In this document: one piece after another, positions 3,119-31,679 of the stretch
Position numbering within the stretch: position 1 is the first letter of the stretch
Layout of the letters: each line of letters begins with the position of its first letter
NCBI GenBank assembly: GCA_021432655.1
Contig: MU271486.1
Span: forward strand, 1 to 53,927
Length of the DNA: 53,927 nucleotides
Source: Atractiella rhizophila
Lineage: Eukaryota
Direction: 5' to 3'
Notes under the pieces: generated by a model
The model's input: the letters and a program-made list of their open reading frames with translations, nothing else
Told to the model about the DNA's origin: nothing
Databases searched by the model: none
Translations under genes and position numbers: made by a program

Positions 3119-5525
3119 ATGTCCAAGAGTTTAACCAGCAACCATGTTAAGCAGCCGAGCACGCAAAGTTGCATTTGGAGCAACTGTTTCTCACACTTCT
3201 GAGTTTTTGAAGCCTGCTACGGAAAGCTTCATTGAAGAAACTCTAAATCATTACTACTCTGCAAGCATCGTCGCTTTCCTCGAGGAATTCTTTCCTACTC
3301 CAGGAATCAGCAATCGAAGCTCAAAAGAGGAAGAGGAGTGGGAATCCAAGAATGCTAACAAATTGAAATCCTGGCGGAAAGTGATGGGAGTGAAGGACAG
3401 GCAGAAAAGTGAGATGTATCCTGTGATTGTGAGTGAGTATTGTTTCAAACAAGCAACTGGATTTTTATGGCTGTTATTGTTTAGACGAGGTTAATGAACT
3501 TTCTGTGGGGAAGATAAAGAGTTGGAGTTCCGCGATGTGCATGTGCATCCACCAGCCGACGATGAAGAGAACGATGGAGGCAAGTTTGCTCACAAATCAG
3601 GCTTTATGGGCGTGGAGAAAGACGAGTGTTTTGTGGAACCAAGAACCGGATCTGTTGGACTCATTGCCAATTGGTAGCGGACGCGACAACGCAGCAGTAC
3701 GATCCTTTCGACGAGTCAAACTGGAATCAAGATACCGAACAAGTACTCGAACAGGTTCTCTACTCTTTCATGAATCTCACATATTATCAGCATCGAACAG
3801 CATCCTATTACATCCTCTTCTTCTTCCCTGGCGCAGCAAGAATCGTTCGTTGGACTCCGAGGCACATTGTTTACACCGAACTATTCGATTTCACAAGCGA
3901 AGACGAGTTTGACGATTTCTGTCATTTTCGTTCGCTCGTATGGTTCAGCTGGAGCGAATCGCGGCCTCGATTGTCACTTTATCAGAGCCACCGCATTCGT
4001 CGCGGAGGCGGCTCATCAAATCTTTGGAGCGAGGAAAGAGGAGCTCGAGCAGGCTGGATTCAGTGTTCCCAGGGCTCCTGACATTTGGGTGCTAAATCTT
4101 CCAGCATTGTCACCTCCGAACGCTCCGTGTTCGCAGCCGTCGATGCAGTTGATCGTAGGCAGAATCAGTGACTGCTGTCGTCCGTCGCTCTGTGGCAGGA
4201 ATGGAAAGTACTTCATAGGGTACGAAAAGGAGAAGGAGGAATCGATTTATTTTGTGAAAGCCAACTGGACATATATTGGTGAGGGTCGCGCATCGGAATC
4301 GGAAGTGTATGGCAAGCTCAAGAAATCACACTATGTTCAAGAAATGATCTACGGTGGCCACCCCAAAGACGTAGAAGATCATGACTACACGCTCAAAAAT
4401 TCATCACGCATCACGGCATCTGTGCTTGAACTGTTACAGACGGAGGAAGAATCGGTTACGTCGAAGAAGAAGGGAGAACCATCAGATGCAGCTCAGAGGT
4501 TGCACTTCCTTGTCCTCCCGTTTGTTCGCCCATTCTATACGTTTCGGAACGCGTACGAACTCGTAGAAGGAATTCGTGGAGGACTTCAAGGTTCGTTTAT
4601 TTGTCGGACGAAGGACCATCTCCCTGATGTTTGTGTCTAGGCCTTTTGGATCTGTACCGTGCGGGTTACCTTCATCGCGATGTCAGCCACTCCAACATTG
4701 CTCTGGCACGGTCTGGAGATGATGTGAAAGGTGTCCTCCAAGATTTCGATTTTGCTGTCGACTTGGCCGCGACGAGAACAATCAGTCACAGCAAGACGGT
4801 GTGTCCTTCCTCCTTGTCCTCAGTCATCAACATGACTGATAACCTTGACTAGGGAACATACCTTTTTCTGTCTGCTGCCCTCCTTGGCACCGACAGGCAC
4901 GCGCACCAGCTGATAGATGACATCGAATCTTCCTACCACATTCTAACGACACATACGTACCCACATTGGCACCCTAATCGTCGTGCGAAAGCAGAAGAGC
5001 TCATCAAATCGTACAATCGCAAGGACGCAGTCGGTATGAAGAAGGATGAGTTAAAAGGAGACTACGCAGGGTTCGGCGAGGACGAGATTCGAGCCAATAT
5101 CCATATTCTTGGTCCCATCATTTCCCTCTTTCGCCAATTTCTCGCAGCTCCTTATCACACACAAATGCGCTTTCAGCGAACCCTCGCGATCGATCGCAAG
5201 AGTGAAGTAATCCAGCTCTGTTCAACGCTTGAAATCTCACACGACAAACTGGAAGAGTTCCTCCAACCAGGTTTTATTGATGCGCTTGCTTTCGAGACGA
5301 ATGATAAACAAGAGAAGCTGCTGAGATTTCTTATTCAGTTTTTACAAATCGTGATCAAACAGCACAAGGAACAGTTGGAAGGGATGACGCACAACGAACC
5401 GAATGTTGTTGATGCTATTTTGAGGAACAATAATGAGAAGAGAAAGGGGGAAGGATTAGAGCAGCACATCCAAGAGACTTCAATCAATGACTAGCCTTCA
5501 AAAGTAGGTCTTTCCGTCTTCGTGA
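3119..5525 (+). pseudogene. Type B REase-like/FunK1 kinase, frameshifted copy
   Basis: Paralogue of 12270-14670; HRDVSHSNI and QDFDFA are present; frameshifting indels near 3188, 3510, 3628, 3926 and 5460, mostly in homopolymer or dinucleotide runs, so sequencing error is possible. Confidence 0.75.
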
Positions 5526-5685: not shown

Positions 5686-5820
5686 CTAAACACTCGCACC
5701 GCGATTAAGGCTCATCGTCACCTCTCAGTGGCTGTCCTTCACTCCAGCACCCGAATGTCTAATACCATTCTCCGTGACCAGCCCACGGATCATCGTTTCC
5801 TTCTTCTTTCCCACCCATCA
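5686..5820 (-). pseudogene. Short degenerate remnant of the TAF8-like gene 3' end
   Basis: ctaaacactc...ttctttcccacccatca aligns to 18442-18573. Confidence 0.75.
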
Positions 5821-6202
5821 TTTCCCTGTTTCGCCAATTTCTAGCTCCGCGCTTCTACCCGAAAACTTTCGACGAGAAGCCCTTGCGAGTTGTTCCTAAG
5901 AATCAAGTAATCCAGCTCTGCCCAGAAGTCAGCATTCCACTGGACGAATTGGAAGAGTTCCCGCAACCAGATTTTCTGGATGCGCTTTCTTGCGACATGA
6001 AGGAGAAACAAGAGAAGGTGTTGCAATTTTTGATTCAGTTCTTACAGGTCGTTATCAATCATCACAGAAAACGGTTCGAGGGGATGGTGACCAACGAAAT
6101 AAATATTGTAGACTCGACAATGTTCTGATGGGGACTGTTAAGAAGAGAAAGAGGGATGGATTACTAGTAGACAGCTGCGCCACGGAAGCGATGAAGGTCT
6201 AG
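5821..6202 (+). pseudogene. Diverged FunK1 kinase 3'-end fragment
   Basis: ORF 5883-6128 (QVIQLCPEVSIPLDELEEF...FLIQFLQVVI) is homologous to the kinase last exon; no upstream exons; indels. Confidence 0.8.
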
Positions 6203-6516
6203 CCATAGACGAGGGCTCTTTCCGCCTTTCAATGCCATTCTACTTTTAAACCTGAATCTTTCCTGGTAGGAACGGTGAAGAGCAGCCAAAACAAAGTCAT
6301 TTAATCCATTCTTGTTCTTACGAAGCTTGCCAGTGAATGAAATGAACATTGAGGTTGAGGTTGGTCACGTGTTTCAGGCTTGTTGTTCCTCACCCTTTGT
6401 TCCTCGTCTCTTGTTCTTCGTCCTTTGTTCCTTTTGCCATAAAAACACGACTAATATCAACCACTTTCTCAACATCAGACTGACCACCACGAGCCGTCGC
6501 CATTATTTGTGACACG

Positions 6517-9156
6517 ATGTCCACTCGTACCAGTACGCCAACCAGCCCCCCGAAACGGCTTCAAACCCAAAGTCGCAATGCGAGCAACCCTTCTCAGAGT
6601 ACCGAACTTCCCGCTACGGAGAGGCAAAGGATTCGTGAAGAGACACAAAATCATTACTACTCTATCAGCATAGACGATTTCCTCAACGAATTCTTCCCTG
6701 GGCCTGACCAAGGCAATCAATCTGATGACAGTGAGGAATCTGAGGCGCAGACGGTCTATTCTGATTCTCAGGGCAATCAACGTGAGGAGAGTGTGGAATC
6801 CACGGAGCAGGCGGAGTTGGACTCATGGCAGGAAAAGATGGGAGTGAAAGGGGCGAAGGAACTCAAAGGGACTGAGGTCTATTCGACTATTGTGAGCTTT
6901 GTTTTAGACAAATCGCTGGATCTTTATGGGTATGGGGCTCTAGACAGGCTTCATGAACTTTTTGTTGCATGATACAGAATTGAAATTCTGTGACGTGCAT
7001 CTAAATGCCGACCCGAAAATGTATGACGGACGCCCGTCTTGGAATAAACCTGATTTCACAGCTGTGAAGAAAGACGAGGTCGAGGGGTGCTGTGGAACCG
7101 ATAACCACATGTGCTGGCGGCATTGCCAACTGATAGCAGACGCGAAATTCCAGAACGAGGATCCTTTCCAAGGGTCGATTTGGCGTCAAGAAATTGTTGG
7201 CACACTGAAGCAAATTCTCCACTACTTGCTGGACCTAGCATATTTCCAGCACCGCACGGCATCCTATCTCATCCTCTTCTTCCCTGGCGCAGCAAGAATC
7301 GTTCGTTGGACTCCCAGACAGATCGTTTACACCGAGCGATTCATTTTCACAGTCGACGACCATTTCAACAAATTTCGTCGCTTCGTTCGCTCATACGGTT
7401 CACCAAGAGCGAACCGTGGTCTGGATTGCCACTTTACTAGAGCTGACAAAGCGGTTGCGAAGCAAGCCGTCGCCGTCTTCCTTGCGAACGAAAAGGACAT
7501 CAAGCAGGCTCAATTCAGTGTCCCCCAGGAATCCGATATATGGGAGCTGCACCTTCCAGAGTTGACACGTCCCAACCCTTCTCGTACGCAACCCTCCATA
7601 GAATCAACTGAAGAAGCTTCTGTACAGTCAAAGGAGCCAACCGGAACATCCTCTGCAGCCTCAACGGAACCAACGGTACAACCTTCTGCACCTTCAAGGG
7701 AACCAACAGATCAATCCTCCGCATCCACGGTGGAACCAATTGTTCAACGCTCAATGGAACTAATCATCGGACGAATGGGACGATATCGCCCGTCGCTTTG
7801 TGGAAGGAATGGAAAGTACTTCGTAGGGTACGAAAAGGGGAAACCTGAATCGATTTGGTTCGTAAAAGCCAACTGGGCGTATATTGGTGAAGGTCGCGTA
7901 TCGGAGTCGGAAGTTTACGATAAACTGAAAGGTACACGAAGTGTTCAAGACATGATCTACGGTGGCTACCCTAAAGACATCGAAGATCGTAACTATACCC
8001 TCAAGGACTCAGACTGCGTGAAACCTTCCCCGAAGGAACAGTTACGAAACGATGGAATGGGGACAGGGGGAACGAGCTCAAACGTGGAGACTGAGGGAGA
8101 TCGAAATTATCCTGAACAGCGATTGCACTTCCTTGTCCTCCCCTTTGTTCGCCCTCTTTCCACCTTTCGGAATGGATACGAACTCGTAGAAGGAATTCGT
8201 GGAGGACTTCAAGGTTCGTTTGTTTTGTTGCATGAGGGACCGTCTCCCCTGATCTTTGTGTCTAGGCCTTTTGGATCTGTACCGTGCGGGTTACCTTCAT
8301 CGCGATGTCAGCCACTCTAACATTGCTCTGGTACGGTCTGGAGCTGATGTGAAAGGTGTCCTCCAAGATTTCGATTTTGCTGTCGACTTGGCTGCGACGA
8401 GAACAATCAGTCACAGCAAGACGGTGCGTCCTTCCCTGCTTCTTATCCTCAATAATCAACATGACTGATAACCTTGACAAGGGAACATACCTTTTTCTGT
8501 CTGCTGCCCTCCTTGGCACCGACAGGCACGCGCACCAGCTGATAGATGACATCGAATCTTCCTACCACATTCTAACAACCCATACATACCCGCATTGGTA
8601 CTCTAATTGTCGTGCAGAAGCAGAACACCTCATTAAGTCGTACAATCGCACGGACGCAGCTAGTACGAAGAGAGAGGAGCTAAAGGGAGAGGGCGATTCA
8701 TTCGGTAACGTTGACATTCGAGCGGACATCTATATTCTCGGCCCTCTCATTTCCCTGTTTCGCCAATTTCTCGCAGCTCGTTACTTCAAAGAAGGACGTT
8801 TCCGACAACTCCTCGCAACAGACCGTGAGGAACTAGTGATCGAGCTCTGTTCTGAGATTGGCATTCCATCGGACGGTTTCAGCGAGTTCTTTCAACCAGG
8901 TTTTATTGATGCGCTTGCTTTCGACACGAATGATAAACAAGAGAAGCTGCTGAGATTTCTCATTCAGGTTTTACAAATCGTAATCAAGCAGCACAAGGAA
9001 CGGTTGGAAGGGATGACGCACAACGAACCGAATGTTGTTGATGATATTTTGGGGAACAATAATAAGAAGAGAAAGGGGGAAGGATTAGAGAGCAGCACAT
9101 CCAAGAGACTACAATCAAAGACTAGCCGTCAAAAGAAGGTCTTCCCGCCTTCGTGA
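6517..9156 (+). CDS. Type A PD-(D/E)xK nuclease-like + FunK1 fungal-type protein kinase; introns 6892-6943, 8214-8265, 8424-8481
   Basis: Splicing at GT-AG sites joins the ORFs in frame; kinase motifs GRNG, FVKANW, LHRDVSHSNI, LQDFDFA, KTGT, DDIES; N-terminal KPDF...ADAK...QILHY; C-terminal KKRK. Confidence 0.88.
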
Positions 9157-9321
9157 TTTGTCAATACCAAGTCTTTCTCATGTCAATCCTGTTTGGAATG
9201 TAAGTAGTTTTTTATTTTGGAATGTCAATAGTTACTTAGAGCTGGTACACTTTGTGAAGGGGCAGATTGGGAATGCTTGAATAGTATGTCTGAAAATGAA
9301 TCAGACATCTGCATCCGAGAA

Positions 9322-10671
9322 CTAAATACTTCCACCTCCGATAAGGCTCATGGTCACCTCTCTATGGCCGTCCTTCACTCCAGCATCTGGATGTCCAATA
9401 CCATTTTCCATGACCAGCCCAGGCATCGTCGTCTCCTTCTTCTTTCCCACCCCATCACCCTTACCCTTCTTCAGCCTCGCCCCCCTCCTTCTCCTTCTCC
9501 TTCTCTTTTCCTTTAACCAATGCGGGCACCTCGAGCCTAACCCTCTTCCCCTCCCCCCCCTCTATCCCCCGAACTCCTCCACCTCTCCTCTTCCCATCCA
9601 CTCCCCGGCTCTCTAGGCTGCCAATCGAAGCCCCATCTCAAATACCTACTTCCACCCGGATTCGGGTCCCTCTCAAGCGGCATTCTCGTCACCACCACAT
9701 CCAACGGCGGTTCCTTCTCCGCAACGTCTTTCCCTCCCATTCCTCCCGTTGCTGCTGCGGCAGAGGACGAGGAGGTGGGGATGGGTGGTGGTGGTTCGAG
9801 CGCGTATTCTCTGGAACCACCTCGAGGATCGAGTGCGGCGGGGGGACCGGTGCGGATGGAGACGGGAGATGAAGGATGAGTCGTGCGACCATTCGTTTGG
9901 AGTTTCCATCTTCGCACGGAGGGATGGGAGTGTGAGGGAGGATTTTGTGCGCGATGCCGTGAGCGGGAGCGAGTTGGGGGGTATGGGTATCGAGACTGTT
10001 GCAGGGAGAGCGGTGGAGAAAGGGTGCATGGGTGGGAACGGTTCTGTGTTTGTAAGAGTGGTAGTGACGTATCCAGACGGGATCTGATTCTGAAGATTCC
10101 TTCCCCTCCCAACATCATCTCTCTCTCCCTCTCTTTCTTCTTCCCCTTCTTCTCCCCTGCCCCTTTCTCCTCCGTCCCCTTCTTCACCAACACCTCCTTC
10201 TGCCCACAGGAGGGAAAGGCAGCCAACCGCCGCCTAATCGACCGTGTCGCGGACATAAAGGAGGGATGGAGGTCACGAGCGAGTCTTCTGCGGTGTCAGC
10301 AGCGGAGGTGGCGAAGGCGGTCCATTGTCGTCTCTTGGTGTTATGGCGGGTGTAGGATGGCGGGTGGCGGAGGAGGGAGGAGTCGGCGCTGGAGAGGAAG
10401 GCTGAGGTCTCGGCAAAGTATTTCAAGGATGAGGGTGGAAGAGGACGCCGGCCAGCTTTGGAAGTGGACGGAGATGGAGGTGTGGAGGAATGGAGGGGTG
10501 GAGACGGAGTAGAGGGAGAGAAGAGATGAGATCTTCTTTGTCCGTCGGTTTAACACCTTCTGTGGAAAATAATCAACATCAAACGCGAACTGAGAGTAAA
10601 ACTAACCATTAGCCAAAGGCGTGACCTCCCTAAATATTTGGCATTCCCTCCCTCCCATGCCACTCCTTCAA
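9322..10671 (-). pseudogene. Truncated, frameshifted copy of the TAF8-like gene (last exon, last intron and end of exon 3)
   Basis: Homologous to 18442-19797; 1-nt indels near 9857 and 10203; similarity stops abruptly after cactccttcaa. Confidence 0.85.
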
Positions 10672-11407
10672 AGTACCGTCACCTCTCTCCGCGACAAACT
10701 TCTGCTCTCTCTTCCTCTGACCCCCAAGGAGAGGTCGTTCGACGTTGGAACGAATGCGTACGCGGGATGCACCTGATGCATCCGAAGTTGCAATATTGAA
10801 GGGGGAACGAATGGGACAGAAGATGAGGACAGGAACCCCCACTACGACGCACAAAAGTTTCAAAGAAGACAGCGTAGCAGCAACCATGGGGTATGGGGAT
10901 AAGGATAGGGCTGGAGAGTGATGTAGAGACTTGGTTAGAAGGAACAAGGAGATGGGAAAGTGGTGGATCGCAACTTGAGAAGATTGAGGAGGGCACAGCG
11001 AGGGATAGGAAGGACATGCAACATGATAAGAAAGGGAGAAGGGGAAGAGATGGGAAGAGATGAGCAAAATGGAACGACGAAGGTTACAGCCCCACGATCA
11101 TCGAGGTGAAGGACCTCTACGAAAACGGCATCAGTCCCCAGAAGACGTTCTCCTCTCCTTATTCTGTTCGGAATCCTCAGCCATCACGAGGCGAAACTCC
11201 ACCGTCTCCTCACCTCCCACCTTCCAGCCCTATCTTTCGCGCCTCCTCTCCCACATGCGTTTGTGTAGCCGACCAATGTGGTCATTGCGATCTTGAAGAT
11301 ACACTGAAGAGCAGCTATGTCACGGTGATTGCGCCGTTAGAGGCAGAGAGGTATGGGGTTGTGATTATAACGACGAGGAACACAAGACACCTCGAGCGAA
11401 TCGCACA

Positions 11408-12269: not shown

Positions 12270-14670
12270 ATGTCCAAGAGTTTAACCAGCAACCATGTTA
12301 AGCAGCCGAGCAAGCAAAGTTGCATTTGGAGCAACTGTTCTCACACTCACACTTCTGAGTTTTTGAATCATGCTACGGAAAGCTTCATTGAAGAAACTCT
12401 AAATCATTACTACTCTGCAAGCGTCGTCGCTTTCCTCGAAGAATTCTTTCCTACTCCCAGGAATCAGCAATCGAAGCTCAAGGAGGAAGAGGAATGGGAA
12501 TCCAAGAATGCTAACAAATTGAAATCCTGGCGGAAAGTGATGGGAGTGAAGGACAGGCAGGAGAGTGAGATGTATCCCATGATTGTGAGTATTGTTTCAA
12601 ACAAGCAACTGGATTTTTATGGCTGTTATTGTTTAGACGAGGTTAATGAACTTTCTGTGGGAAGATAAAGAGTTGGAGTTCCGCGATGTGCATGTGCATC
12701 CACCAGCCGACGATGAAGAGTACGATGGAGGCAAGTTTGGCGGCAAATCAGGCTTTATGGGCGTGGAGAAAGACGAGTGTTGTGGAATCAAGAACACGAT
12801 CTGCTGGACTCATTGCCAACTGGTAGCGGACGCGACAATACAGCAGTACGATCCTTTCGACGAGTCAAACTGGAATCAAGATACCGAACAAGTACTCGAA
12901 CAGGTTCTCTACTCTTTCATGAATCTCACATATTATCAGCATCGAACAGCATCCTATTACATCCTATTCTTCCCTGGCGCAGCAAGAATCGTTCGTTGGA
13001 CTCCGAGGCACATTGTTTACACCGAACTATTCGATTTCACAAGCGAAGACGAGTTTGACGATTTCTGTCATTTCGTTCGCTCGTATGGTTCAGCTGGAGC
13101 GAATCGCGGCCTCGATCATCACTTTATCAGAGCCACCACATTCGTCGCGGAGGCGGCTCATCAGGTCTTTGGAGCGAGTAAAGAGCAGCTCAAGCAGGCT
13201 GGATTCAGTGTTCCCAGGGCTGCCGACATTTGGGTGCTAAATCTTCCAGCATTGTCACCTCCGAACGCTCCGTGTTCGCAGCCGTCGATGCAGTTGATCG
13301 TAGGAAGAATCAATGACTGCTGTCGTCCGTCGCTCTGTGGCAGGAATGGAAAGTACTTCATAGGGTACGAAAAGGAGAAGGAGGAATCGATTTATTTTGT
13401 GAAAGCCAACTGGACATATATTGGTGAGGGTCGCGCATCGGAATCGGAAGTGTATGACAAGCTCAAGAAATCACACTATGTTCAAGAAATGATCTACGGT
13501 GGCCACCCCAAAGACGTAGAAGATCATGACTACACGCTCAAAAATTCATCACGCATCACGGCATCTGTGCTTGAACTGTTACAGACGGAGGAAGAACCGG
13601 TTACGTCAAAGAAGAAGGGAGAACCATCTGATCCAGCTCAGAGGTTGCACTTCCTTGTCCTCCCGTTTGTTCGCCCATTCTATACGTTTCGGAACGCGTA
13701 CGAACTCGTAGAAGGAATTCGTGGAGGACTTCAAGGTCCGTTTGTTTGTCGGACGAAGGACTATCTCCCTGATCTTTGTGTCTAGGCCTTCTGGATCTGT
13801 ACCGTGCGGGTTACCTTCATCGCGACGTCAGCCACTCCAACATTGCTCTGGTACGGTCTGGAGCTGATGTGAAAGGTGTCCTCCAAGATTTCGATTTTGC
13901 TGTCGACTTGGCCGCGACAAGAACAATCATTCACAGCAAGACGGTGTGTCCATCTCTGCTTCTTATCCTTAATAATCAACATGACTGATAACCTTGATTA
14001 GGGGACATACCTTTTTCTGTCGGCTGCCCTCCTTGGCGAGGACTGGCATGCGCACGAACTGATGGATGACATCGAATCCACCTACCACATTCTAACAACA
14101 CATACTTACCCGCATTGGCACTCCAGTCGGCGTGCGAAAGCAGAACACCTCATTAAATCGTACGATCGCAAGGACGCAGTCGGTATGAAGAAGGATGAGT
14201 TAAAAGGGACTTACGACCGATTTGGCGACGGCGACATTCGAGCGGACATCGCGATTCTGGGTCATGTCATTTCCCTTTTTCGCCAATTTCTGGCTTCTCG
14301 TTATCACCCACAAAAAGGAATCCTCCAAGAAGTCCTAGCAACAGCTCGTGCGAAGGAAGTAATCCAGCTCTGCTCAAACATTAGGATACCACAAGGAGAA
14401 CTGAAAGAGTTCCTCCAACCAGGTTTTATTGATGCGCTTGCTTTCGACACGAATGATAAACAAGAGAAGTTGCTGCGATTTCTGATTCAGTTCTTACAAA
14501 TCGTGATCAAGCAGCACAAGGAACAGTTGGAAGGGATGACGCACAACGAACCGAATGTTGTTGATACTATTTTGGGGAAAAATAATAAGAAGAGAAAAGG
14601 GGAAGGATTAGAGAGCAGCACGTCCAAGAGGCTACAAGTACTTCAACAGCAAGTCGTTCCTTCTTCGTGA
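12270..14670 (+). CDS. Type B (degenerate nuclease motif) FunK1 fungal-type protein kinase; introns 12585-12636, 13736-13785, 13944-14001
   Basis: Same intron positions as type A and in-frame splicing; HRDVSHSNI, QDFDFA and DDIES intact; KSGF and ADAT replace KPDF and ADAK. Confidence 0.88.
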
Positions 14671-14826
14671 TTTGTCAATACCAAGTCTTTCTCATGTCAA
14701 TCCTGTTTGGAATGTAAATAGTTTTTTTTTTGGAATGTAAATAGTTACTTAGGGCTAGTACACTTCGTGAGGCTGCGGATTGGGAATGCTTGAATAATAT
14801 TCTGAAATGAATCAGACAGCTGAGGG

Positions 14827-15591
14827 CTAAACACTCCCACCCACATTAAGGCTCATGGTCTCTCTTTGGCCGTCCTTCACTCCAGCATCCGGATGTCCAA
14901 TACCATTTTCCATGACCAGCCCAGGCATCGTCGTCTCCTTCTTCTTTCCCACCCCATCACCCTTACCCTTCTTCAACCTCGCCCCTTCCTTCTCCTTCTC
15001 CTTCTCTTTTCCCTTAACCAAAGCAGGCACCTCGAGTCTAACCCTCTTTCCCTCCCCCCCTCTATCCCCTGAACTCCTCCATCTCTCCTCTTCCCATCCA
15101 CTCCCCGGCTCCCTAGGCTGCCAATCGAAGCCCCAACTCAAATACCTACTTCCACCCGGATTCGGGTCCCTCTCAACCGGCATTCTCGTCACCACATCCA
15201 ACGGCGGTTCCTTCTCCACAATGTCTTTCCCTCCCATCCCCCCCGTTGCGGCTGCGGCAGAGGAGGATGAGGAGGTGGGGATGGGCGGTGGTGGTTCGAG
15301 CGCGTATTCTCTGGAACCACCTCGAGGATCGAGTGCGGCGGGCGGACCGGTGCGGAGGAGACGGGAGATGAAGGATGAGTCGTGTGACCATTCGTTTGGA
15401 GTTTCCATCTTCGCACGGAGGGATGGGAGTGTGAGGGAGGATTTTGTGCGCGATGCGGTGAGCGGGAGCGAGTTGGGGGGTATGGGTATCGAGACCGTTG
15501 CAGGGAGGGCGGTGGAGAAAGGATGCATGGGTGGGAACGGTTCTGTGTTTGTAAGAGTGGTAGTGACGTATCCAGACGGGATCTGATTCTG
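14827..15591 (-). pseudogene. 5'-truncated copy of the TAF8-like last exon
   Basis: Near-identical to 18442-19206; switches to kinase sequence after gatctgattctg. Confidence 0.85.
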
Positions 15592-15592
15592 A

Positions 15593-15908
15593 TGAAGTAA
15601 TCCAGCTCTGTTCAACGCTTGAAATCTCACACGACAAACTGGAAGAGTTCCTCCAACCAGGTTTTATTGATGCGCTTGCTTTCGACACGAATGATAAACA
15701 AGAGAAGTTGCTGCGATTTCTGATTCAGTTCTTACAAATAGTGATCAAGCAGCACAAGGAACAGTTGGAAGGGATGACGCACAACGAACCGAATGTTGTT
15801 GATGCTATTTTGAGGAAAAATAATAAGAAAAGAAAGGGGGAAGGATTAGAGAGCAGCACGTCCAAGAGGCTACAAGTACTTCAACAGCAAGTCGTTCCTT
15901 CTTCGTGA
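15593..15908 (+). pseudogene. FunK1 kinase 3'-end fragment (EVIQLCSTLEISHDKLEEF... to stop)
   Basis: Start matches 308-420 and 5204-5320; no upstream kinase exons. Confidence 0.85.
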
Positions 15909-16063: not shown

Positions 16064-18019
16064 CTAAACACTCCCACCCACATTAAGGCTCATGGTCTCT
16101 CTGTGGCCGTCCTTCACTCCAGCATCCGGATGTCCAATACCATTTTCCATGACCAGCCCAGGCATCGTCGTCTCATTCTTCTTTCCCACCCCATCACCCT
16201 TACCCTTCTTCAACCTCGCCCCTTCCTTCTCCTTCTCCTTCTCTTTTCCCTTAACCAAAGCAGGCACCTCGAGTCTAACCCTCTTTCCCTCCCCCCCTCT
16301 ATCCCCTGAACTCCTCCACCTCTCCTCTTCCCATCCACTCCCCGGCTCCCTAGGCTGCCAATCGAAGCCCCAGCTCAAATACCTACTTCCACCCGGATTC
16401 GGGTCCCTCTCAACCGGCATCCTCGTCACCACATCCAACGGCGGTTCCTTCTCCGCAACGTCTTTCCCTCCCATTCCTCCCGTTGCTGCTGTGGCAGAGG
16501 ATGAGGAGGAGGTGGGGATGGGCGGTGGTGGTTCGAGCGCATATTCTCTGGAACCACCTCGAGGATCGAGTGCGGCGGGGGGACCGGTGCGGAGGAGACG
16601 GGAGATGAAGGATGAGTCGTGTGACCATTCGTTTGGAGTTTCCATCTTCGCACGGAGGGATGGGAGTGTGAGGGAGGATTTTGTGCGCGATGCGGTGAGC
16701 GGGAGCGAGTTGGGGGGTATGGGTATCGAGACCGTTGCAGGGAGGGCGGTGGAGAAAGGATGCATGGGTGGGAACGGTTCTGTGTTTGTAAGAGTGGTAG
16801 TGACGTATCCAGACGGGATCTGATTCTGCAGATTCCTTCCCCCTCCCATCATCATCTCTCTCTCTCTCTCCTTCTTCTTCCCCTTCTTCTCCCCTTCCCC
16901 TTTCTCCTCCGTCCCCTTCCTCACCAACACCTCTTTCTGTCCCACAGGAGGGAAAGGCAGCCAACCGCCACCTAATCGGCCGTGTCGAGGACGTAAAGGA
17001 GGGATGGAGGTCACGAGCGAGTCTTCTGCGGTGTCAGCGGCGGAGGTGGCGAAGGCGGTCCATTGTCGTCGTTTGGTGTTATGGCGGGTGTAGGATGGCG
17101 GATGGCGGAGGAGGGAGGAGTCGGCGCTGGAGAGGAAGGCTGAGGTCTCGGCAAAGTATTTCAATGATGAGGGCGGAGGAGGACGCTGGCCGGCTTTGGA
17201 AGTGGATGGAGATGGAGGGGTGGAGGAATGGAGGGGTGGAGAGGGAGTAGAGGGGAGAGAAGAGATGAGATCTTCTTTGTCCGTCGGTTTAACACCTTCT
17301 ATGGGAAATAATCAACATCAAATCGTCAAACGCGAACTGAGAGTAAAAACTCACCATTAGCCAAAGGCGTGACCTCCCTAAATATTGGCACTCCCTCCCT
17401 CCCATGCCACTCCTTCAACGTGCTCTCCTCCCACCCGACCTCACTAACATAAGCATCCCACCACTCCGCTTTTCCCGCTCCCTTCTCTTCTTCTTCCTTC
17501 TTCTTAAACCGTACCTCATTCCTAACCTTGCTCAACGGTCCCTCTTCCACACCACCCTCTGCCACTGTACCCCCTTCACCGGATTGAATTCCATCCACAC
17601 CATTGGTCATGTTGTTGGCGTTGGCAGTGGAAAGCAGAAGGGTCTCGTGTCCAGGAAGCGGAGGGAACCAAGCTGGGATGTATTCCGGACGGAGAGAAGG
17701 ATCTTTCCACCCTGGGAAGAGAGGATTCTTCTCTCCCTCTTCTTCATCCTCTGGTACCAACATTTCATCGTCGTCTTGATTCTCGCCCTGGGATGCTGAT
17801 AAGGAGTGACGACGCTTCCGCTTCCCGAGACTGCTGGAGTGTGGAAGGGGAAAGGCGAACGCCTGCTCGACGAGTTTGGAGTGCTCGGATGGAGAGAGCG
17901 AGGAGAACCGGAGACGGGTGCGCTGTCCCTTGGCCGTGTTTTCGCCTTCTTCTCCCTCTCCATCTTCGCTAGAACCGGCGAGCTGGCCGACACTCTTTCC
18001 CAAGCTCTCTACGATGCGA
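16064..18019 (-). pseudogene. 5'-truncated TAF8-like copy (exons 3-4 with open frame, histone-fold exon missing)
   Basis: ORFs 17326-18078 and 16064-17164 match 19729-20409 and 18442-19542; the breakpoint falls in intron 2. Confidence 0.85.
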
Positions 18020-18285
18020 AAGAGTTCCTCCAACCAGGTTTTATTGATGCGCTTGCTTTCGACACGAATGATAAACAAGAGAAGTTGCTGCGATTTCTGA
18101 TTCAGTTCTTACAAATAGTGATCAAGCAGCACAAGGAACAGTTGGAAGGGATGACGCACAACGAACCGAATGTTGTTGATACTATTTTGAGGAAAAATAA
18201 TAAGAAAAGAAAAGGGGAAGGATTAGAGAGCAGCACGTCCAAGAGGCTACAAGTACTTCAACAGCAAGTCGTTCCTTCTTCGTGA
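18020..18285 (+). pseudogene. FunK1 kinase 3'-end fragment (KEFLQPG... to stop)
   Basis: Near-identical to 14405-14670. Confidence 0.85.
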
Positions 18286-18441: not shown

Positions 18442-20875
18442 CTAAACACTCCCACCCACATTAAGGCTCATGGTCTCTCTTTGGCCGTCCTTCACTCCAG
18501 CATCCGGATGTCCAATACCATTTTCCATGACCAGCCCAGGCATCGTCGTCTCCTTCTTCTTTCCCACCCCATCACCCTTACCCTTCTTCAACCTCGCCCC
18601 TTCCTTCTCCTTCTCCTTCTCTTTTCCCTTAACCAAAGCAGGCACCTCGAGTCTAACCCTCTTTCCCTCCCCCCCTCTATCCCCTGAACTCCTCCATCTC
18701 TCCTCTTCCCATCCACTCCCCGGCTCCCTAGGCTGCCAATCGAAGCCCCAACTCAAATACCTACTTCCACCCGGATTCGGGTCCCTCTCAACCGGCATTC
18801 TCGTCACCACATCCAACGGCGGTTCCTTCTCCACAATGTCTTTCCCTCCCATCCCCCCCGTTGCGGCTGCGGCAGAGGAGGATGAGGAGGTGGGGATGGG
18901 CGGTGGTGGTTCGAGCGCGTATTCTCTGGAACCACCTCGAGGATCGAGTGCGGCGGGCGGACCGGTGCGGAGGAGACGGGAGATGAAGGATGAGTCGTGT
19001 GACCATTCGTTTGGAGTTTCCATCTTCGCACGGAGGGATGGGAGTGTGAGGGAGGATTTTGTGCGCGATGCGGTGAGCGGGAGCGAGTTGGGGGGTATGG
19101 GTATCGAGACCGTTGCAGGGAGGGCGGTGGAGAAAGGATGCATGGGTGGGAACGGTTCTGTGTTTGTAAGAGTGGTAGTGACGTATCCAGACGGGATCTG
19201 ATTCTGTAGATTCCTTCCCCCTCCCATCATCATCTCTCTCTCCCTCTCTTTCTTCTTCCCCTTCTTCTCCCCTTCCCCTTTCTCCTCCGTCCCCTTCCTC
19301 ACCAACACCTCCTTCTGTCCCACAGGAGGGAAAGGCAGCCAACCGCCGCCTAATCGACCGTGTCGAGGACGTAAAGGAGGGATGGAGGTCACGAGCGAGT
19401 CTTCTGCGGTGTCAGCGGCTGAGGTGGCAAAGGCGGTCCATTGTCGTCTCTTGGTGTTATGGCGGGTGTAGGACGGCGGATGGCGGAGGAGGGATGAGTC
19501 GGCGCTGGAGAGGAAGGCTGAGGTCTCGGCAAAGTATTTCAAGGATGAGGGCGGAGGAGGACGCTGGCCAGCTTTGGAAGTGGATGGAGATGGAGGTGTA
19601 GAGGAATGGAGGGGCGGAGAGGGAGTAGAGGGGAGAGAAGAGATTAGATCTTCTTTGTCCGTCGTTTTAACACCTTCTAGGGAAAATAATCGGCATCAAT
19701 TCGTCAAACGCAAAATGAGAGATAAAAACTAACCATGAGCCAAAGGCATGACTTCCCTGAATACTGGTACTCCTTCCCTCCCATGCCACTCCTTCAACGT
19801 GCTCTCCTCCCACCCCACCTCACTAACATAAGCATCCCACCACTCCGCTTTTCCCGCTCCCTTCTCTTCCTCCTCCTTCTTCTTAAACCGTATCTCATTC
19901 CTAACCTTGCTCAACGGTCCCTCTTCCACACCACCCTCAGCCACTGTACCCCCTTCTCCAGATTGAACTCCATCCACATCATTGGGCATGTTGTTGGTGC
20001 TGGCAGTGGAAAGCAGAAGGGTCTCGTGTCCAGGAAGCGGAGGGAACCAAGCTGGGATGTATTCCGGACGGAGGGAAGGATCTTTCCACGCTGGGAAGAA
20101 CGGATTCTTCTCCCCCTCTCCTTCATCCTCTGGTACCAACATTTCATCGTCGTCTTGAATCTCGCCCTGGGATGCGGATAAGGAGTGACGACGCTTCCGC
20201 TTCCCGAGACTGCTCGAGTGCGGAAGCGGAAAGGCGAACGCCTGCTCGACGAGTTTGGAGTGCTCGGATGGAGAGAGCGAGGAGAACCGGAGACGGGTGC
20301 GCTGTCCCTTGGCCGTGTTTTCGCCTTCTTCTCCCTCTCCATCTTCGCTAGAACCGGCGAGCTGGCCGACACTCTTTCCCAAGCTCTCTACGATGCGATC
20401 CGTTACCAACCGGCTCCAGATTGCACGGAAACAAATGCGAAGAACTTACCAAGAAGAGCGTCAGCCCACTCAGCCCCACGTTCCCTCGCCTCCACCCACC
20501 CTCTCTCCTTCCCTTCACCCCTCCTCTTCCCCGCAAACTCCAACAACTCCTCCGTCTCCCTCGCGCCTCTCATCTCCTCCAACGCCTCCACCACATCCCT
20601 GCCATTGACGAGGGACCGGCCGGAGAGTTCAGCGTTCTCCCTGGAGAGGCTGCCGATGTGGGAGATGTAGGAGGCGAGGAGGTAGGAGAGCACGGTGAGA
20701 GGGACGGTGCGGATGTGGGTGAAGGATTGGGTGGAGGCGGTGGGCGAGGAGGAGGTGAGGAGGTGGAGGATGTTGAGCTGGAGGAGATAGTTGGCGTAGG
20801 CCCCTGCTCCTGCTTGCAACAGTTCACCTGGAGAATGGGCGATAACAAGGACGCGGACGAACCATTTTGCGACAT
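18442..20875 (-). CDS. TAF8: TFIID subunit 8-like protein (Bromo_TP histone fold + TAF8_C-like motif); introns about 20810-20862, 20388-20449, 19677-19733
   Basis: Spliced start MSQNGAGAYANYLLQL...; LSYLLASYISHIGSLSRENAELSGRSLVNGRDVVEALEEM is a Bromo_TP-type helix pattern; RPEYIPAWFPPLPGHET matches the TAF8 proline motif. Confidence 0.75.
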
Positions 20876-21944
20876 TTAGTCTGCTACTTATTGACCTCGA
20901 CGTGAATACCCTCGAAAGCACGTACTCGGAAGAGAAAGTCGTGTTATTGTCCTTGGTCAAGGAGTTTTAGTTATCTTCTAATCAGACCAACCTTCCTCCT
21001 AGAACAATAGACCAGATGGTCAACTAAGCTGCTTGGAAGGGAGAGAATGGAATGGGAAGAATGGCTGGAAGAAAGGAAAGGCGAAAGGTGTGTGCTTCAA
21101 ACTCCCGGGATGGAAAATGAGACACAATCGTCGCTCCCGCTTCATGAAAAGTATGAGCTACTTTCAATATGGGAAATGGATGTGTAGATATTCTATCGGT
21201 CCTAACAAAGATACGATGTAACAAGCTGGCCCTCGAAATAAAGTCTTTCGACATTTGACAATAATCTAGTCTCCCGTCTACGATCCAGTCCCCATCTGCA
21301 TCCCGCACTCCGGGATCTTTCTATCTCTAAGGAGGTTTCCCTTCCTTTGCCTATTTTCCAGGCCGAGAGCAACTGAAATGAGACGAAATGTACGGTCACA
21401 AAGCTTTCTTGCTCATCCAAAGTGGACCGATGCACAATGTCATTAATGCCAGGCCTTGCACGTCCATGCAATATTATGTGTCATCTTTATTCAACTTTGA
21501 GTCGTTAAAATAAATACCCTGGTTGTGAATCTTTCTGCCTCAAGTTGGTGTGGTGCATGAGGAGAGCCGAAAAAAAGGTCCCTTCTTCCTCAGGTGTCCT
21601 CTAAAGGTTTTAGAACAATCTGCATCATTTATATTTCACTACTATTTGGAGAGACTGGATGATTTCTATTGCTTAAAGGATACTGTGTGCTGTCAGAGGA
21701 ATACGAACAAAAAAATATGCTTTGTGTGAAGGACACGTGTAACTGGGTAACGGGCGTTTCTATAAACCAAAGAAAGAGAAGTAATCTAGTCAAGTGATAA
21801 TGTCGGAATGATATGCAAGTGCTGTGTAACCTAAAAATGGACGAAAATGCGGAGATTGAAGAGCAATACCTGGAACGATTCTATGTGACAAAAAGCCTGG
21901 TGTGAGAGAAATGGGACGGGGCCAGTTTGGGCCAATGTGTCTAT

Positions 21945-23065
21945 TCAAGAGTCAAATATACTCCTCATCTCCTCCGCTAAAATGCATTGGCTCGCCTTGA
22001 TATCATCGTGCAATCTCTGGAAAATCGATTCAATGTCTTCGTCTTCCCAATCTTCCGTCCTTGCCGTTGTCGCGAGACCAATTTCGTCTGCTAAACTGCT
22101 TCGCGTAGCTTTTTTGTGGTCGTCCAACTGCAGAAACAACGGATCGAGTTCCTCATCCGCCCCTTCTCCGTTCTTGATTTCTACATCGGGCTCGTGTTCC
22201 TTGAAGTCCCATGGGTAGAGTACCAAGTCTTGGACAATCGTACTTTGGACCAGGTACTCGGACGAGACTCTCTCCCTCATCTCAAGACACGGAAAGTCTT
22301 GAGGACCCCGTACTTTCCCCCACTTTCTTTCCCATTCCAACGTAACTCTCCTAGCTTCTTCTCCTCCAATCCTTCCATCGAACTGCTCTAGGAGTTGAAA
22401 CCAAAGCGCGTTGATCTTCGTCCAAGTGAAATATCGTCCTCCACCAATATTGGCAACATCAGTCCATCCCTGAGCTGTCCAATAACAGTCCTGAACATGA
22501 GCCATGGATAGGATGAGGATAGCAACCCAGAGCTCTTTGGGGTGAGGGAGGATGTCCCGTTCTGAATAGATGGCTGCGAAGCGTTGTAACAGGTAGAGAG
22601 CGTGGAAGAGCGTGACTTCCTGTGTACCAGCTTTTGTGGACGTTAGATACTGCCCAACCATATTAGAATGAAGTTAATCCTCGAGACTGAGCGACGACTC
22701 ACGATGTACTCGTGCATTTCGTTTGCAAAATCCCAGGACGCTTTGGGATAGGGAAGGAGACAAAAGATGACCTCCTGTATTCGCTGAGAGATATTGAACC
22801 TCCTCTCTAATTCCTCTTCTCTTTCCTTCTTTGCATTTGTTTCATCTACCTTTTTCGTCTCTTCCTCTTCTCTCAAATAATTGGGCAAATCTATCAACAA
22901 GGGATGAGCCCTTCTCTTGTTCAAAATTAAAATGAACGCACCATCAGATGTCATGGACATCTTTTCAAAGTCACTAGAGTGGTATCCATTCTCCTCCCAC
23001 GACGATAGAGACAGTCGAGACGAAGGAATTACATTCACATCGCGCTCGGAAAGCGCGGGTACCAT
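21945..23065 (-). CDS. Divergent Pho80/PCL-type cyclin-box protein (about 2 introns; start uncertain)
   Basis: LFHALYLLQRF...LWVAILILSMAHVQDCYWTAQGWTDVANI...INALWFQLLEQFDGRI follows the PCL cyclin-box spacing. Confidence 0.55.
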
Positions 23066-23786
23066 ATTGAACTGAAAGATCTGCCAGTCAGGAGAGGTGT
23101 CTGAATTTCTGGAACCACAATTAGACGAGAGAGGCGGTTATGTGATACACGGAAGGGGAAGCGACGATGGACTCTTTCGTCGAGTTTTTAGAGTTGTTTT
23201 GTTGTCTGTGCGTCACACATGACTCTCATCAATAACAAGGGAATCTCGTCTTCCGCCCGATCCAGGCTCATAAAATACTTCGTTACCATTACTTACTACG
23301 TGACTGGTCCTATCTAGCAGTAGTTCTCGCCTATTCCGATGTGTCCGGCAGGTGAACCCGCTAAAAGTTGATCTCAACTCGTCCGGACCATAGAAGTTCC
23401 ATGGTAAGGAGTCAGAGCCCAAGCTCGACGACGAGGAGTATCCTACAGGAATGTAGCCGTGAGGGAGATATGACACAGGTTTTATTTTATCTCTTCGTTT
23501 CTTCTTGTGATAACCTTCAGGTCACAGTGTCGTACACCATGGAACCCTGATATTTCGCCGAATGTTCTGGTTCATATTTTTCATATGCTGGGAGAAAGGT
23601 GGTATCAACAGCTGTCAGAATTCCCTTGCGTTGTTTGGTTCTAACGTGGATGATTGGAAAACAAAGCACATATATTATTTTACACGTAACCATGATACAA
23701 TTTCGTCCCTCACTGGCAGAACTAAGCGCTTTGACATATCACCCAGACTGGTCACCTAAACTGAGAGAGATTCGATTTTCTGGTCC

Positions 23787-26267: not shown

Positions 26268-26333
26268 GTTGTGGTTGTCGTTACGAGGTTCAAAAGTTGT
26301 GGACAGAAAAGAAGGACGAGGAGAAGAGAAGTC

Positions 26334-26592
26334 TTTTATATGTGCGGAGGTTGGTGTTGGTGACGTGTTTTGGAACGTCAAATCAACGTGATGTCATATG
26401 CATCATAGTCCCAATTTCACGGTAGTCTTCCCCGGCCTTCTAAGAAAAAATCCCAAAGCTTGCACGTAATGCCAAGCTTGCCAGGGGTTGCTGCTGGTGT
26501 ACGTGTACACGTCAAGTGCAGCATCATTGATCCCCGTGGTGTTGCACCTTTCTTGCGTGGTTGACAGAATCTGCGGGGTTCGGTTGCGACGT
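26334..26592 (-). promoter_or_regulatory. Putative Ish1/Msc1 promoter: TATAAAA plus a cluster of ACGT/CRE-like sites
   Basis: TATAAAA at 26334-26340 on the minus strand; TGACGT at 26361, 26375 and 26509 (either strand); seven ACGT cores. Confidence 0.5.
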
Positions 26593-26884
26593 ACTGTGAG
26601 TCAAGCTTCGGTGAAATGTAAGTGTCAGTGAGACAGTTTCTCACTTCGCTTCACAGACAATTTTGATTCTGACTTATTTATTCAAAGGTCTTGTCTTTTC
26701 CGAGGCCCAAAGAGAATGACGAAAATTAGGCGCAGTCCAGCTCCAGCGGGTTGTAGTCAAGCAAGTTCAGCCGGGTTTGAGACAGCCCCGAACAGAAGGT
26801 CCGGTTGTCTGCGAGTATAAAATCCCAAGCTTTCCTTACTCTCCTCATCCACCTTTCAGCTCACCCACCTGTGGTTAACCAAGG

Positions 26885-31358: not shown

Positions 31359-31679
31359 TTTGACTTGCCACGGTAATTATTTTGCTTTAGCTTTCTTCTT
31401 GGGTATGTTCAGAGTTGTTTCATCTTTGCTCTGTTCAAAAAGACTTAAAGTCCCGTGGGACGATGAAGGACAAGTATGCGACCGAGCTACTAAGACACTC
31501 AACGAGGTATTACAGTATGACTAGAACAAATATATGAGGAGCGGCTAGGCTTTGGAATAAATATTGAGTAATTGAAACATAGGTAATGAAGAAGTGGATT
31601 TGATAAATAGAGGAGAACTAAGCAAACATTTAGATCTAGCGAGAGGCGAATGTAATAACTTAGATAGCTGATATTTCCA

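Follow-up and report, generated by a model that had tools for sequence, protein, structure and literature searches.

Old paralog divergence between homogenised flanks as the probable origin of a variable C-lobe segment in a FunK1 kinase gene array of Atractiella rhizophila

Kinase gene copies arranged as a tandem array in Atractiella rhizophila differ strongly from one another in one stretch of the kinase C-lobe, and the flanks of this stretch are 94-97% identical. We found that the stretch, hereafter the cassette, is not fast-evolving, since its synonymous divergence matches that of the 5' two-thirds of the gene. The explanation we favor, with a probability of roughly two in three, is that the paralogs diverged long ago in a helical region under loose constraint, which lies between gene-converted flanks and has been exchanged through them. 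The window analysed is a stretch of 53,927 nucleotides (contig MU271486.1), in which the array comprises the following features:

6517-9156, + strand: gene A, intact, 825 amino acids, restriction-endonuclease (REase) fold plus FunK1 kinase
6517-6891, 6944-8213, 8266-8423 and 8482-9156, + strand: exons of gene A, spliced frame open, GT-AG introns
12270-14670, + strand: gene B, intact, 746 amino acids, spliced frame open, B-type core at about 14209-14406
3119-5494, + strand: gene B', frameshifted pseudogene with a B-type front half and an X-type cassette (core at about 5060-5254)
1-623, + strand: last exon X, open frame, X-type cassette with its core at about 165-359
901-1195, + strand: fragment F1, decayed remains of the 3' part of another paralog, with F-type block 2
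5814-6163, + strand: fragment F2, 3' remnant with F-type block 2, joined to a neighbour-gene remnant at a short shared word
1572-2348, + strand: gene A', front part only (99% identity to A), ending at the assembly gap 2349-2373
15593-15908, + strand: fragment T1, end of an X-type block 2 followed by the 3' flank
18018-18285, + strand: fragment T2, 3' flank only

The exon plan of gene A is that of its paralog A0, which is the database protein P0001, and intron 3 of gene A is spliced out in contigs of the sequencing runs X4 and X5. Relative to B, gene B' carries several indels that break the frame. A second contig, C521, contributes F0, to which fragment F2 is 97.6% identical, two further last exons, namely a fifth variant (A0) and a chimera (B0, of which P0002 is the annotated model), and, at its end, the intact front half of gene B1. 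Last exon X probably represents the 3' half of B1, joined to it across the contig break; a search for a read spanning this join found none. C521 is more likely the adjacent contig than the other haplotype: its end is a B-type exon-2 donor, the window begins a short way into exon 4, and identity between its A0 gene and A is no more than about 80%. Altogether, no fewer than five different C-lobe variants occur in the array (types A, A0, B, X and F), one of them on the second contig. Types A, A0 and B occur with open frames in intact genes and type X in a probably intact gene, and the assembly gap leaves A' without a cassette. B0, the only clear internal chimera, is now frameshifted. Intact or open cassette types together with a frameshifted B0 would also be expected under selection against homogenisation, which speaks against our favored explanation. 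The array neighbours are a Bromo_TP-domain gene and its remnants, convergent (tail-to-tail) with the kinase genes; in a Pfam search of nine single exons or ORFs, the one match below E 1e-3 was Bromo_TP.

P0001, P0002 and P0003 match the FunK1 family (PF17667, Pkinase_fungal) with 87.7, 84.6 and 95.3 bits at a cut-off of 24.1, and the exon-3 region of B' scores 39.8 in a genome scan; taken as single exons, A and B did not match PF17667. The HRDxS..N, D-x-D and DDxES motifs agree with the family consensus, and residues K452, E465, H579-D581, N586 and D602, all at least 90% conserved in 108 aligned rows, are present in A, A0 and B. The AlphaFold model (pTM 0.82), with TTBK1 as its top structural match (Z 16.1, rmsd 3.8, 271 aligned residues), predicts a protein-kinase fold with the catalytic Lys, Glu, HRD, Asn and Mg-binding Asp, and, going by the motifs, the enzyme may be active. 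The N-terminal domain (6947-7561) was modelled with a pLDDT of 91.5 as a restriction-endonuclease fold. Its four best matches (Z 8.0-8.6, rmsd 3.0-4.0, 110-125 aligned) are the type IIG-like restriction enzymes DrdV and BpuSI, TT1808 and a putative restriction-endonuclease-domain protein; nucleases of the same fold are also frequent further down the list. The N-terminus itself is rich in Ser, Thr and Pro, shows no obvious hydrophobic leader by eye and is of low confidence in the model over residues 1-30.

FunK1 genes are expanded in this genome, with 125 exon-level matches from 107 scored candidates. Seven of the best 150 matches had their best stretch past residue 710, and six of these seven were Atractiella rhizophila's own proteins. 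A word-index search of longer proteins returned no ortholog outside the species (three matches, all its own), and judged by sequence the FunK1 subfamily of the array appears so far to be known from this genome alone. Among the titles and abstract openings listed, we found no FunK1 array with patchwork conversion or C-lobe swapping.

Within gene A, the cassette and its surroundings are divided as follows:

8160-8600, + strand: homogenised block on the upstream side, running from the end of exon 2 through exon 3 and both adjoining introns (2 and 3) into the start of exon 4; contains the catalytic HRD and DFD
8689-8748, + strand: cassette block 1, A-type, 20 codons, DNA identity between types 0.63-0.70
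8749-8775, + strand: conserved helix ISLFRQFLA inside the cassette, containing the B0 breakpoint (helix 704-721 in the model)
8776-8883, + strand: cassette block 2, A-type, 36 codons, three short predicted helices, DNA identity between types 0.56-0.65
8884-9457, + strand: homogenised block on the downstream side, from the last kinase helix and C-terminal tail through the 3' untranslated stretch to the remnant of the convergent gene

The first-pass annotation had placed a hypervariable cassette at 8575-8895, diverging sharply after DDIES between nearly invariant flanks. A divergent stretch between similar flanks is indeed real. Copies of different types are 0.67-0.77 identical in DNA over 8575-8895; the corresponding values are 0.96-0.97 for exon 3 (pairs among A, B and B') and, with X included in the pairs, 0.94-0.95 for the 3' flank. 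The contrast between A and B exceeds chance at synonymous sites, 23 of 50 differing in the core as against 5 of 40 in exon 3 (Fisher p=0.0006) and 7 of 40 in the 3' flank (p=0.007). The three variants quoted in that annotation were recovered in exon 4 of A (8482-9156), in B (14002-14670) and, for the X-type, at 3-623 and 4853-5494, and the fourth in fragments at about 901-1195 and 5814-6163. Several details needed correction. The copies diverge after DDIES but not sharply, with identity declining gradually from 0.82-0.93 (8536) to 0.57-0.70 (8656), and the true core, at about 8650-8883, consists of two blocks split by the conserved helix, which has 0-2 amino-acid-changing differences per pair. 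Near-invariance of the flanks applies to the main copies (0.94-0.97) but not to the F fragments, whose identity to the full genes is about 70%, nor to A0, where the homogenised stretch begins about 40 nt later. The quoted motifs hold with exceptions (DDVES in the copy at 18, QRT and AFET in that at 5036), and the loose labels 18, 5036, 8356 and 14062 stand for motif starts at 162, 5057, 8686 and 14206. Downstream, self-alignments extend to 9457, and identity over 150 nt of untranslated region is 0.82-1.00.

The assigned position in the kinase C-lobe agrees with the predicted structure, in which the stretch forms helices within the kinase fold; those of block 2 span residues 725-733, 735-745 and 750-757 in the A0 model. 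Of the 65 core columns, 22 are invariant and 77% of these are hydrophobic, while the ten four-state columns are 20% hydrophobic. This pattern is as expected for helices with free surfaces, surface being read here from the hydrophobicity of columns rather than from per-residue solvent accessibility.

We then compared divergence along the gene. Between A and B, dS is 0.85 in exon 1, 0.86 in the REase-like region and 0.76 in the N-lobe (0.76-0.86 over the 5' two-thirds), and 0.67-0.71 in the cassette core; the anomalous values are the low ones, 0.14 in exon 3 and 0.20 in the 3' flank. The upstream homogenised block has a pS of 0.12-0.29, compared with about 0.5 further upstream, and introns 2 and 3 are 0.86-0.90 identical, compared with 0.67 for intron 1. 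Blocks of lowered synonymous and intron divergence are thus present between old paralogs. Core and REase region do not differ significantly between A and B in pS (23/50 vs 67/132, p=0.62) or pN (41/146 vs 119/468, p=0.52), with pN of block 2 above that of the REase region (30/81 vs 119/468) at an uncorrected p of 0.04. Between A and A0, the core pN of 0.30 is well above the 0.12 of the REase region, at a pS of 0.45 vs 0.35.

Comparison with unlinked paralogs gave the same contrast. Amino-acid identity of the core is 0.51 within the array and 0.48-0.51 to the paralogs on C150 and C580, so that the array copies are no more diverged from each other in this stretch than from unlinked genes; for the 3' flank the values are 0.87 and 0.61-0.64. 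Among A, B, C150a and C875, omega (dN/dS) is 0.45 in the core and 0.40 in both the REase region and the 3' flank, and in the exon-3 block and 3' flank the terminal branches of A and B fall from 0.6-0.9 to 0.06-0.15. In 101 outside homologs, the family as a whole is least conserved after DxES, where the modal-residue frequency is 0.17-0.31 vs 0.50-0.57 in the catalytic part.

The array also contains mosaic copies, and the word cassette is apt in the mechanical sense that the stretch is exchanged between copies. The front halves of B, B', B0 and B1 are 97.1-98.8% identical, and despite this B, B' and B0 carry three different cassettes. B' has an X-type cassette, 0.96 identical to X. B0 switches from X-type to A-type between the informative sites 8757 and 8780 (p=0.001, 1000 permutations); in four triplets, clustering of informative sites gave p=0.001 for B0 (two triplets), 0.02 for A0 and 0.51 for B. 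The assembly is fragmented (1998 contigs), with a break within the exon-3 block between C521 and C307 besides the gap at 2349-2373, and collapsed or mis-joined repeats could in principle produce both near-identical flanks and a chimera. We consider such an artefact scarcely plausible. The flanks are not identical, their 3-6% differences being mostly synonymous for A and B; the A-type tract of B0 differs from A at 10 of 108 nt and so is no copy of it; and a contig of run X2, which may come from the same strain, reproduces 8547-8787 (upstream flank and block 1) without a difference in 241 nt.

The first-pass annotation had attributed the cassette to a recognition surface driven apart by recurrent positive selection, as in self/nonself recognition or conflict, a reading that we regard as very unlikely. 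Site models were fitted to the four lineages A, B, X and A0, with the pseudogene B', the recombinant B0 and the partial, decayed F and T fragments excluded. Omega was 0.55 over 8575-8895 (p=0.0005 against 1) and 0.58 in the core (CI 0.40-0.85), significantly below 1 in both, and no positively selected class was found with M1a/M2a, M7/M8 or M8a/M8 in three regions (none of nine tests significant). Simulating 37% constrained and 63% neutral sites gave a median omega of 0.57, close to the observed 0.58. With 30% of sites at omega 3, selection was detected in 17 of 25 simulated runs and omega was at or below 0.58 in one of 25; for 10% of sites at omega 4, detection with four sequences dropped to 12 of 25. 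The divergence peak at the cassette is also present in synonymous sites.

The two blocks differ in these tests. Omega is 0.39 in block 1 (CI 0.2-0.8) and 0.82 in block 2 (CI 0.5-1.4), the latter indistinguishable from 1 although the fold must constrain buried residues. In a branch model of seven sequences, the core shows no acceleration relative to unlinked paralogs (array 0.55 vs outside 0.47, p=0.62); for block 2, omega is weakly elevated on array branches (0.82 vs 0.39, p=0.09), and block 1 shows the opposite trend (0.31 vs 0.99, p=0.06). Recent divergence within a type is purifying, as A and B0 differ in A-type block 2 at 4 of 81 nonsynonymous and 6 of 27 synonymous sites (p=0.015). A dN/dS below 1 with the pattern explained by conversion of the flanks, which the first-pass annotation had named as counting against its own proposal, is largely what we observe, the exception being the 36 codons of block 2, where weak positive selection may act. 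Four of ten sequencing runs were compared, at thin coverage that makes uncovered stretches in X4-X6 uninformative; a contig of run X6 (2019) has the A-type cassette with one difference in 215 nt, at a depth of only 2.6, and so gives no hint of allelic hypervariability. For a role in conflict speak the divergent kinases of the somA allorecognition locus of Coprinopsis (10.64898/2026.06.24.733965) and the REase and kinase plan known from conflict proteins (PMC5289972). Against it, FunK1 is not named in the text of the somA preprint (supplements aside), and the Bromo_TP gene and its remnants are what flanks the array, no NACHT or LRR neighbour having been noticed on inspection of the window's ORF list.

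In other kinases, helices of the distal C-lobe act as docking sites. It is conceivable, though rather unlikely, that the flanks were converted and the cassette persists by selection that removes erasing conversions, each C-lobe type presenting a different partner or substrate surface and the variants being old and each under purifying selection. Several observations fit: local dips in long near-identical blocks, with B' and B 0.91-1.00 identical over the front 2.3 kb (97% for the front half) and dropping to 0.65-0.73 at 5060-5257; three or four types kept in open frames; purifying selection on A-type block 2 between A and B0; and the mostly polar variable columns. A divergence peak between converted flanks is, moreover, a published signature of selection against homogenisation, matching the red/green opsin peak (PMC3924837); by section 2.2 of that source, a passive divergence barrier predicts the same picture. 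Other results weigh against selective maintenance. The 5' two-thirds of A and B are equally unconverted, which makes for two converted islands rather than one protected peak; the cassette was overwritten in B' (by the X-type) and in B0; and no partner gene varying in step with the cassettes was noticed in the window. In the C150 tandem pair, of which C150b is a broken gene, homogenisation is strongest (0.90-0.95 vs 0.67-0.89) in the counterpart of the conserved helix, block 2 and 3' flank. A dip at the cassette between near-identical flanks recurred in none of nine other paralog pairs, a weak test with mostly young or broken pairs; C397/C335 shows a slight dip (0.72 vs 0.76-0.91), and C1/C252a loses similarity from the cassette onward without recovery.

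Under the explanation of old divergence between converted flanks, an old duplication burst would have given rise to at least five paralog lineages, corresponding to cassette types A, A0, B, X and F. We infer that non-allelic gene conversion and unequal crossover then repeatedly overwrote the catalytic exon-3 block, and that the same exchange overwrote the 3' end with its untranslated region and neighbour-gene remnant. The intervening 200-300 bp would encode loosely constrained C-lobe helices diverging at an ordinary rate. Being too different to start exchange, the cassette would keep its original paralog age, an escape from conversion that is probably passive rather than selected. Owing to near-identical DNA on both sides, it could sometimes be transferred whole, or split at the conserved helix, yielding new combinations of front half and C-lobe.

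A bolder proposal, which we consider distinctly unlikely, is that the array forms a modular recognition or conflict system, in which nuclease-fold front halves and C-lobe specificity cassettes are reassorted via conserved flanks and ancient types are kept by selection, each engaging a different partner (self/nonself factor, inhibitor or substrate). Were it true, the FunK1 family, large and unexplained, would gain a mapped specificity element and a built-in diversification route. Natural paralogs with a common front half and one differing 65-codon module are a ready set for the question of partner specificity; if the distal C-lobe sets it, the variable C-lobes of large FunK1 expansions, including that of this genome, would become interpretable. 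Such use lends the array a modest further value, the function of FunK1 kinases being unresolved (PMC3203195). On the explanation we favor, the array also illustrates cleanly that a hypervariable recognition patch can be mimicked by gene conversion among tandem copies, which calls for caution with similar calls.

The lineage-specific FunK1 expansion resembles those of Paracoccidioides and Coccidioides, as described in PMC3203195. With the red/green opsins (PMC3924837) the array shares low intron and flank divergence, chimeric copies and a local peak also seen at synonymous sites. The opsin peak, however, surrounds sites of known function with nearly all else converted, whereas here the peak coincides with a region that varies throughout the family and has no known functional site, and between A and B the gene is left mostly unconverted. 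Crinkler-type CR proteins such as CRN8 (reviewed in PMC5289972) likewise join an N-terminal REase-like fold to a protein kinase and show tandem copies with modular recombination at a conserved motif. In contrast to these, the array proteins, known from sequence and models with no known toxicity or secretion, have no CR header domain identifiable by eye at the N-terminus, and the swapped module is part of the kinase C-lobe instead of a whole effector domain. Finally, the somA locus of Coprinopsis cinerea (10.64898/2026.06.24.733965) is also a basidiomycete cluster with variable numbers of divergent kinases. The somA kinases lie tail-to-tail with NACHT genes beside an LRR gene and vary between alleles over their whole length, whereas the tail-to-tail neighbour here is a Bromo_TP-domain gene and the variation is between paralogs of one genome.

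The first 20,400 bases of the window, which forms the beginning of contig C307 in a 51 Mb fungal assembly, hold a tandem array built from a four-exon gene and fragments of it. A second contig, C521, carries further copies in reverse orientation (B0, F0, A0 and B1).

Array copies and fragments
1-623: X, last exon, truncated by the contig start
1572-2348: A', ends at an assembly gap
3119-5494: B', frameshifted
6517-9156: gene A, open frame after splicing, 825 aa
12270-14670: gene B, open frame after splicing, 746 aa
F1, F2, T1, T2: 3' remnants
C521: B0, frameshifted
C521: A0, intact, the same protein as P0001 in the database
C521: B1, intact front half, stops where the missing part of X would start

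The likely order, for which we infer a join between C521 and C307, is B0-F0-A0-B1/X-F1-A'-gap-B'-F2-A-B-T1-T2. The 25-N gap at 2349-2373 probably hides the remainder of A'. In sequencing run X2, the contig carrying the A cassette had a depth of 151, about twice the 74-78 of two neighbouring single-type contigs; this depth, which is not a copy number, hints that A' has the same cassette as A. The model of database protein P0004 (1572-8550) begins in A' and goes on in A, repeats one segment, has a displaced end, and looks like an annotation bridging the two genes across the gap. Low-depth contigs from two outside runs have intron 3 spliced out, indicating that genes of the array are transcribed.

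The cassette variants quoted in the first-pass annotation were all found in the sequence, and the observation itself held with small corrections. Over 8575-8895, in exon 4 of gene A, different cassette types share 67-77% DNA identity, while exon 3 and the 3' flank share 94-97% among A, B, B' and X. Similarity falls gradually past the DDIES motif rather than abruptly, and the cassette core comprises two blocks (8689-8748 and 8776-8883) flanking a conserved helix. With C521 counted, the cassettes fall into five types (A, A0, B, X and F) plus one chimera, B0. That this pattern is an assembly artefact is highly improbable, since the flanks and tracts are several percent apart, and run X2, possibly of the same strain, yielded a contig that matches exactly over 8547-8787.

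Three spliced paralogs passed the Pfam cut-off for Pkinase_fungal (FunK1). A structural model of A0 (pTM 0.82, from 108 aligned sequences) matched protein kinases over residues ~411-790, with TTBK1 as the best match (Z 16.1, rmsd 3.8, 271 aligned). In agreement with the C-lobe placement proposed earlier, the flagged stretch (A0 residues ~652-758) is a run of C-lobe helices, with a pLDDT of 87-95 in the blocks, modelled downstream of the DDIES helix and upstream of the last long helix. The first half of exon 2, modelled separately, matched restriction-endonuclease-like proteins (Z 8.0-8.6). Based on these profile and fold matches, the gene encodes a protein with a restriction-endonuclease (REase) fold and a kinase, a plan described for Crinkler-type proteins (review PMC5289972). 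A-type genes contain a low-confidence Ser/Thr/Glu/Pro-rich insert between the two domains (7560-7760), to which A0 adds one repeat unit and which B-type genes lack. Within the REase-fold domain (7034-7150 in A, ~12730-12840 in B), a PD...DxK pattern resembling the PD-(D/E)xK nuclease motif is retained in A and A0, whereas B and B1 have lost both PD and K. Judging from these residues, the array may contain both nuclease-competent and nuclease-dead forms.

We then compared the divergence of the cassette with that of the remaining gene. Between the intact genes A and B, synonymous divergence (dS) reached 0.85 for exon 1, 0.86 for the REase-like region, 0.76 for the N-lobe and 0.71 for the core, whereas exon 3 had a dS of 0.14 and the 3' flank one of 0.20. 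The two genes share 67% identity in intron 1 and 86-90% in introns 2 and 3. The core did not differ from the REase region in synonymous (pS, p=0.62) or nonsynonymous (pN, p=0.52) differences, but its pS differed from that of the flanks (p=0.0006 and p=0.007). A four-taxon fit gave A/B branches of 0.62/0.71 for the REase region and 0.78/0.86 for the core, against 0.07/0.15 for the exon-3 block and 0.13/0.06 for the 3' flank. At the amino-acid level, the core is as similar to the unlinked paralogs on contigs C150 and C580 (0.48-0.51) as it is inside the array (0.51), while identity inside the array versus outside paralogs is 0.87 versus 0.61-0.64 for the 3' flank and 0.80 versus 0.46-0.52 for the start of exon 4. 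The anomaly is the young flanks, not the cassette.

The word cassette was itself borne out. B0 is a recombinant, X-type across block 1 and A-type across block 2, with the switch between 8757 and 8780, inside the conserved helix (44/49 informative sites within the tract versus 15/54 outside; permutation p=0.001). Between the start codon and the 3' end of exon 2, B, B', B0 and B1 share 97.1-98.8% identity, yet identity drops to 0.65-0.73 between B' and B at 5060-5257 and to 0.72-0.79 between B' and B0 at 5111-5310, amid long stretches of 0.96-1.00. B-type front halves thus carry differing cassettes, which shift relative to them. In a tandem pair on C150, the most similar part runs from the conserved helix onward, and none of nine other paralog pairs, though mostly young or broken, peaked in divergence at the cassette; elsewhere, the cassette has no systematic protection.

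The conserved helix also marks the start of the F fragments (5790-5830 and 880-920), where it joins a remnant of the neighbour gene at a short shared word, suggesting that a microhomology-mediated deletion removed the front half of the F paralog. In a paralog on contig C252 (~5750-6970 of 21000-30000), an internal duplication in the cassette-homologous region repeats this helix, another rearrangement at the same spot.

We favour, with a probability of about 0.7 and from one genome, the reading that old divergence passively escapes conversion. An old expansion would have produced at least five paralogs, among which exchange would be repeatedly initiated at two places still alike: the catalytic exon, where purifying selection limits change, and the 3' end, to which every copy has a piece of the convergent neighbour gene attached. 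In between, the loosely constrained helices would have diverged beyond the similarity required to initiate exchange, retaining their original age, although they may ride along when both flanks pair. Distal C-lobe helices serve as docking surfaces in other kinases and may do so here. Selection maintaining old functional cassette variants is a possible but distinctly less probable explanation, again from one genome. A theory review (PMC3924837) describes both outcomes: conversion may end passively through accumulated divergence, and selection may also keep a divergence peak.

Diversifying selection, as originally proposed, is improbable. Maximum-likelihood codon models (custom GY94-type implementation, F3x4; A, B, X and A0) gave a dN/dS (omega) of 0.55 over the 107 codons of the flagged stretch (CI 0.40-0.75, p=0.0005 versus 1), 0.58 over the 65-codon core, 0.39 in block 1 and 0.82 in block 2 (CI 0.5-1.4). 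None of nine site-model tests on these sequences detected a positively selected class (smallest p 0.22); the favoured mix had ~37% of sites under constraint and 63% effectively neutral, and its simulation returned a median omega of 0.57 with 0/25 false positives. Simulated power was 17/25 for omega 3 and 25/25 for omega 5 at 30% of sites, but 12/25 for omega 4 at 10%, so that positive selection, if weak or limited to few sites, may have gone undetected. For A, B and the outside paralogs C150a and C875, omega was lowest in the catalytic block (0.19), followed by the N-lobe (0.32), the REase region and the 3' flank (0.40 each) and the core (0.45). The cassette region is the least conserved kinase part across 101 outside homologs, and A and B0, two diverged copies of one type in block 2, differ mostly synonymously (4/81 versus 6/27, p=0.015). 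Contrary to passive escape, A-B pN is higher in block 2 than in the REase region (p=0.04, uncorrected), block 2 omega is 0.82 on array branches versus 0.39 outside (p=0.09; block 1 shows the opposite direction, p=0.06), and A-A0 pN is 0.30 in the core versus 0.12 in the REase region.

The window contains further repeats.

Neighbour gene and other repeats
9232-10674, 14800-15591, 16064-18019, 18442-20966, minus strand: convergent neighbour gene copies, Bromo_TP domain (E 8e-5, just under the cut-off)
26882-28722 and 29551-31396: another tandem gene pair with 80% identity and, by eye, a Rossmann-like GGAG motif
34147-34838 and 53108-53844: inverted repeat pair, 74% identical

The neighbour gene is duplicated together with the kinase 3' end, and a short remnant of it follows each full-length kinase copy in the window. 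Its Bromo_TP part is present in one copy and absent from the others. A motif in the gene is reminiscent of TAF8.

By profile, fold and motifs, the array genes belong to FunK1, for which lineage-specific expansions of unknown function have been reported (PMC3203195); this genome has a large expansion, with 125 exon-level matches from 107/205 candidates scored. Among titles and abstract openings of the FunK1 and fungal-type kinase literature, a scope mostly outside subscription papers, we found no publication on this pattern. The Coprinopsis somA locus, as presented in the preprint 10.64898/2026.06.24.733965, is alike solely in being a basidiomycete kinase cluster: its kinases are paired with NACHT genes next to an LRR gene, and its variation lies between alleles.
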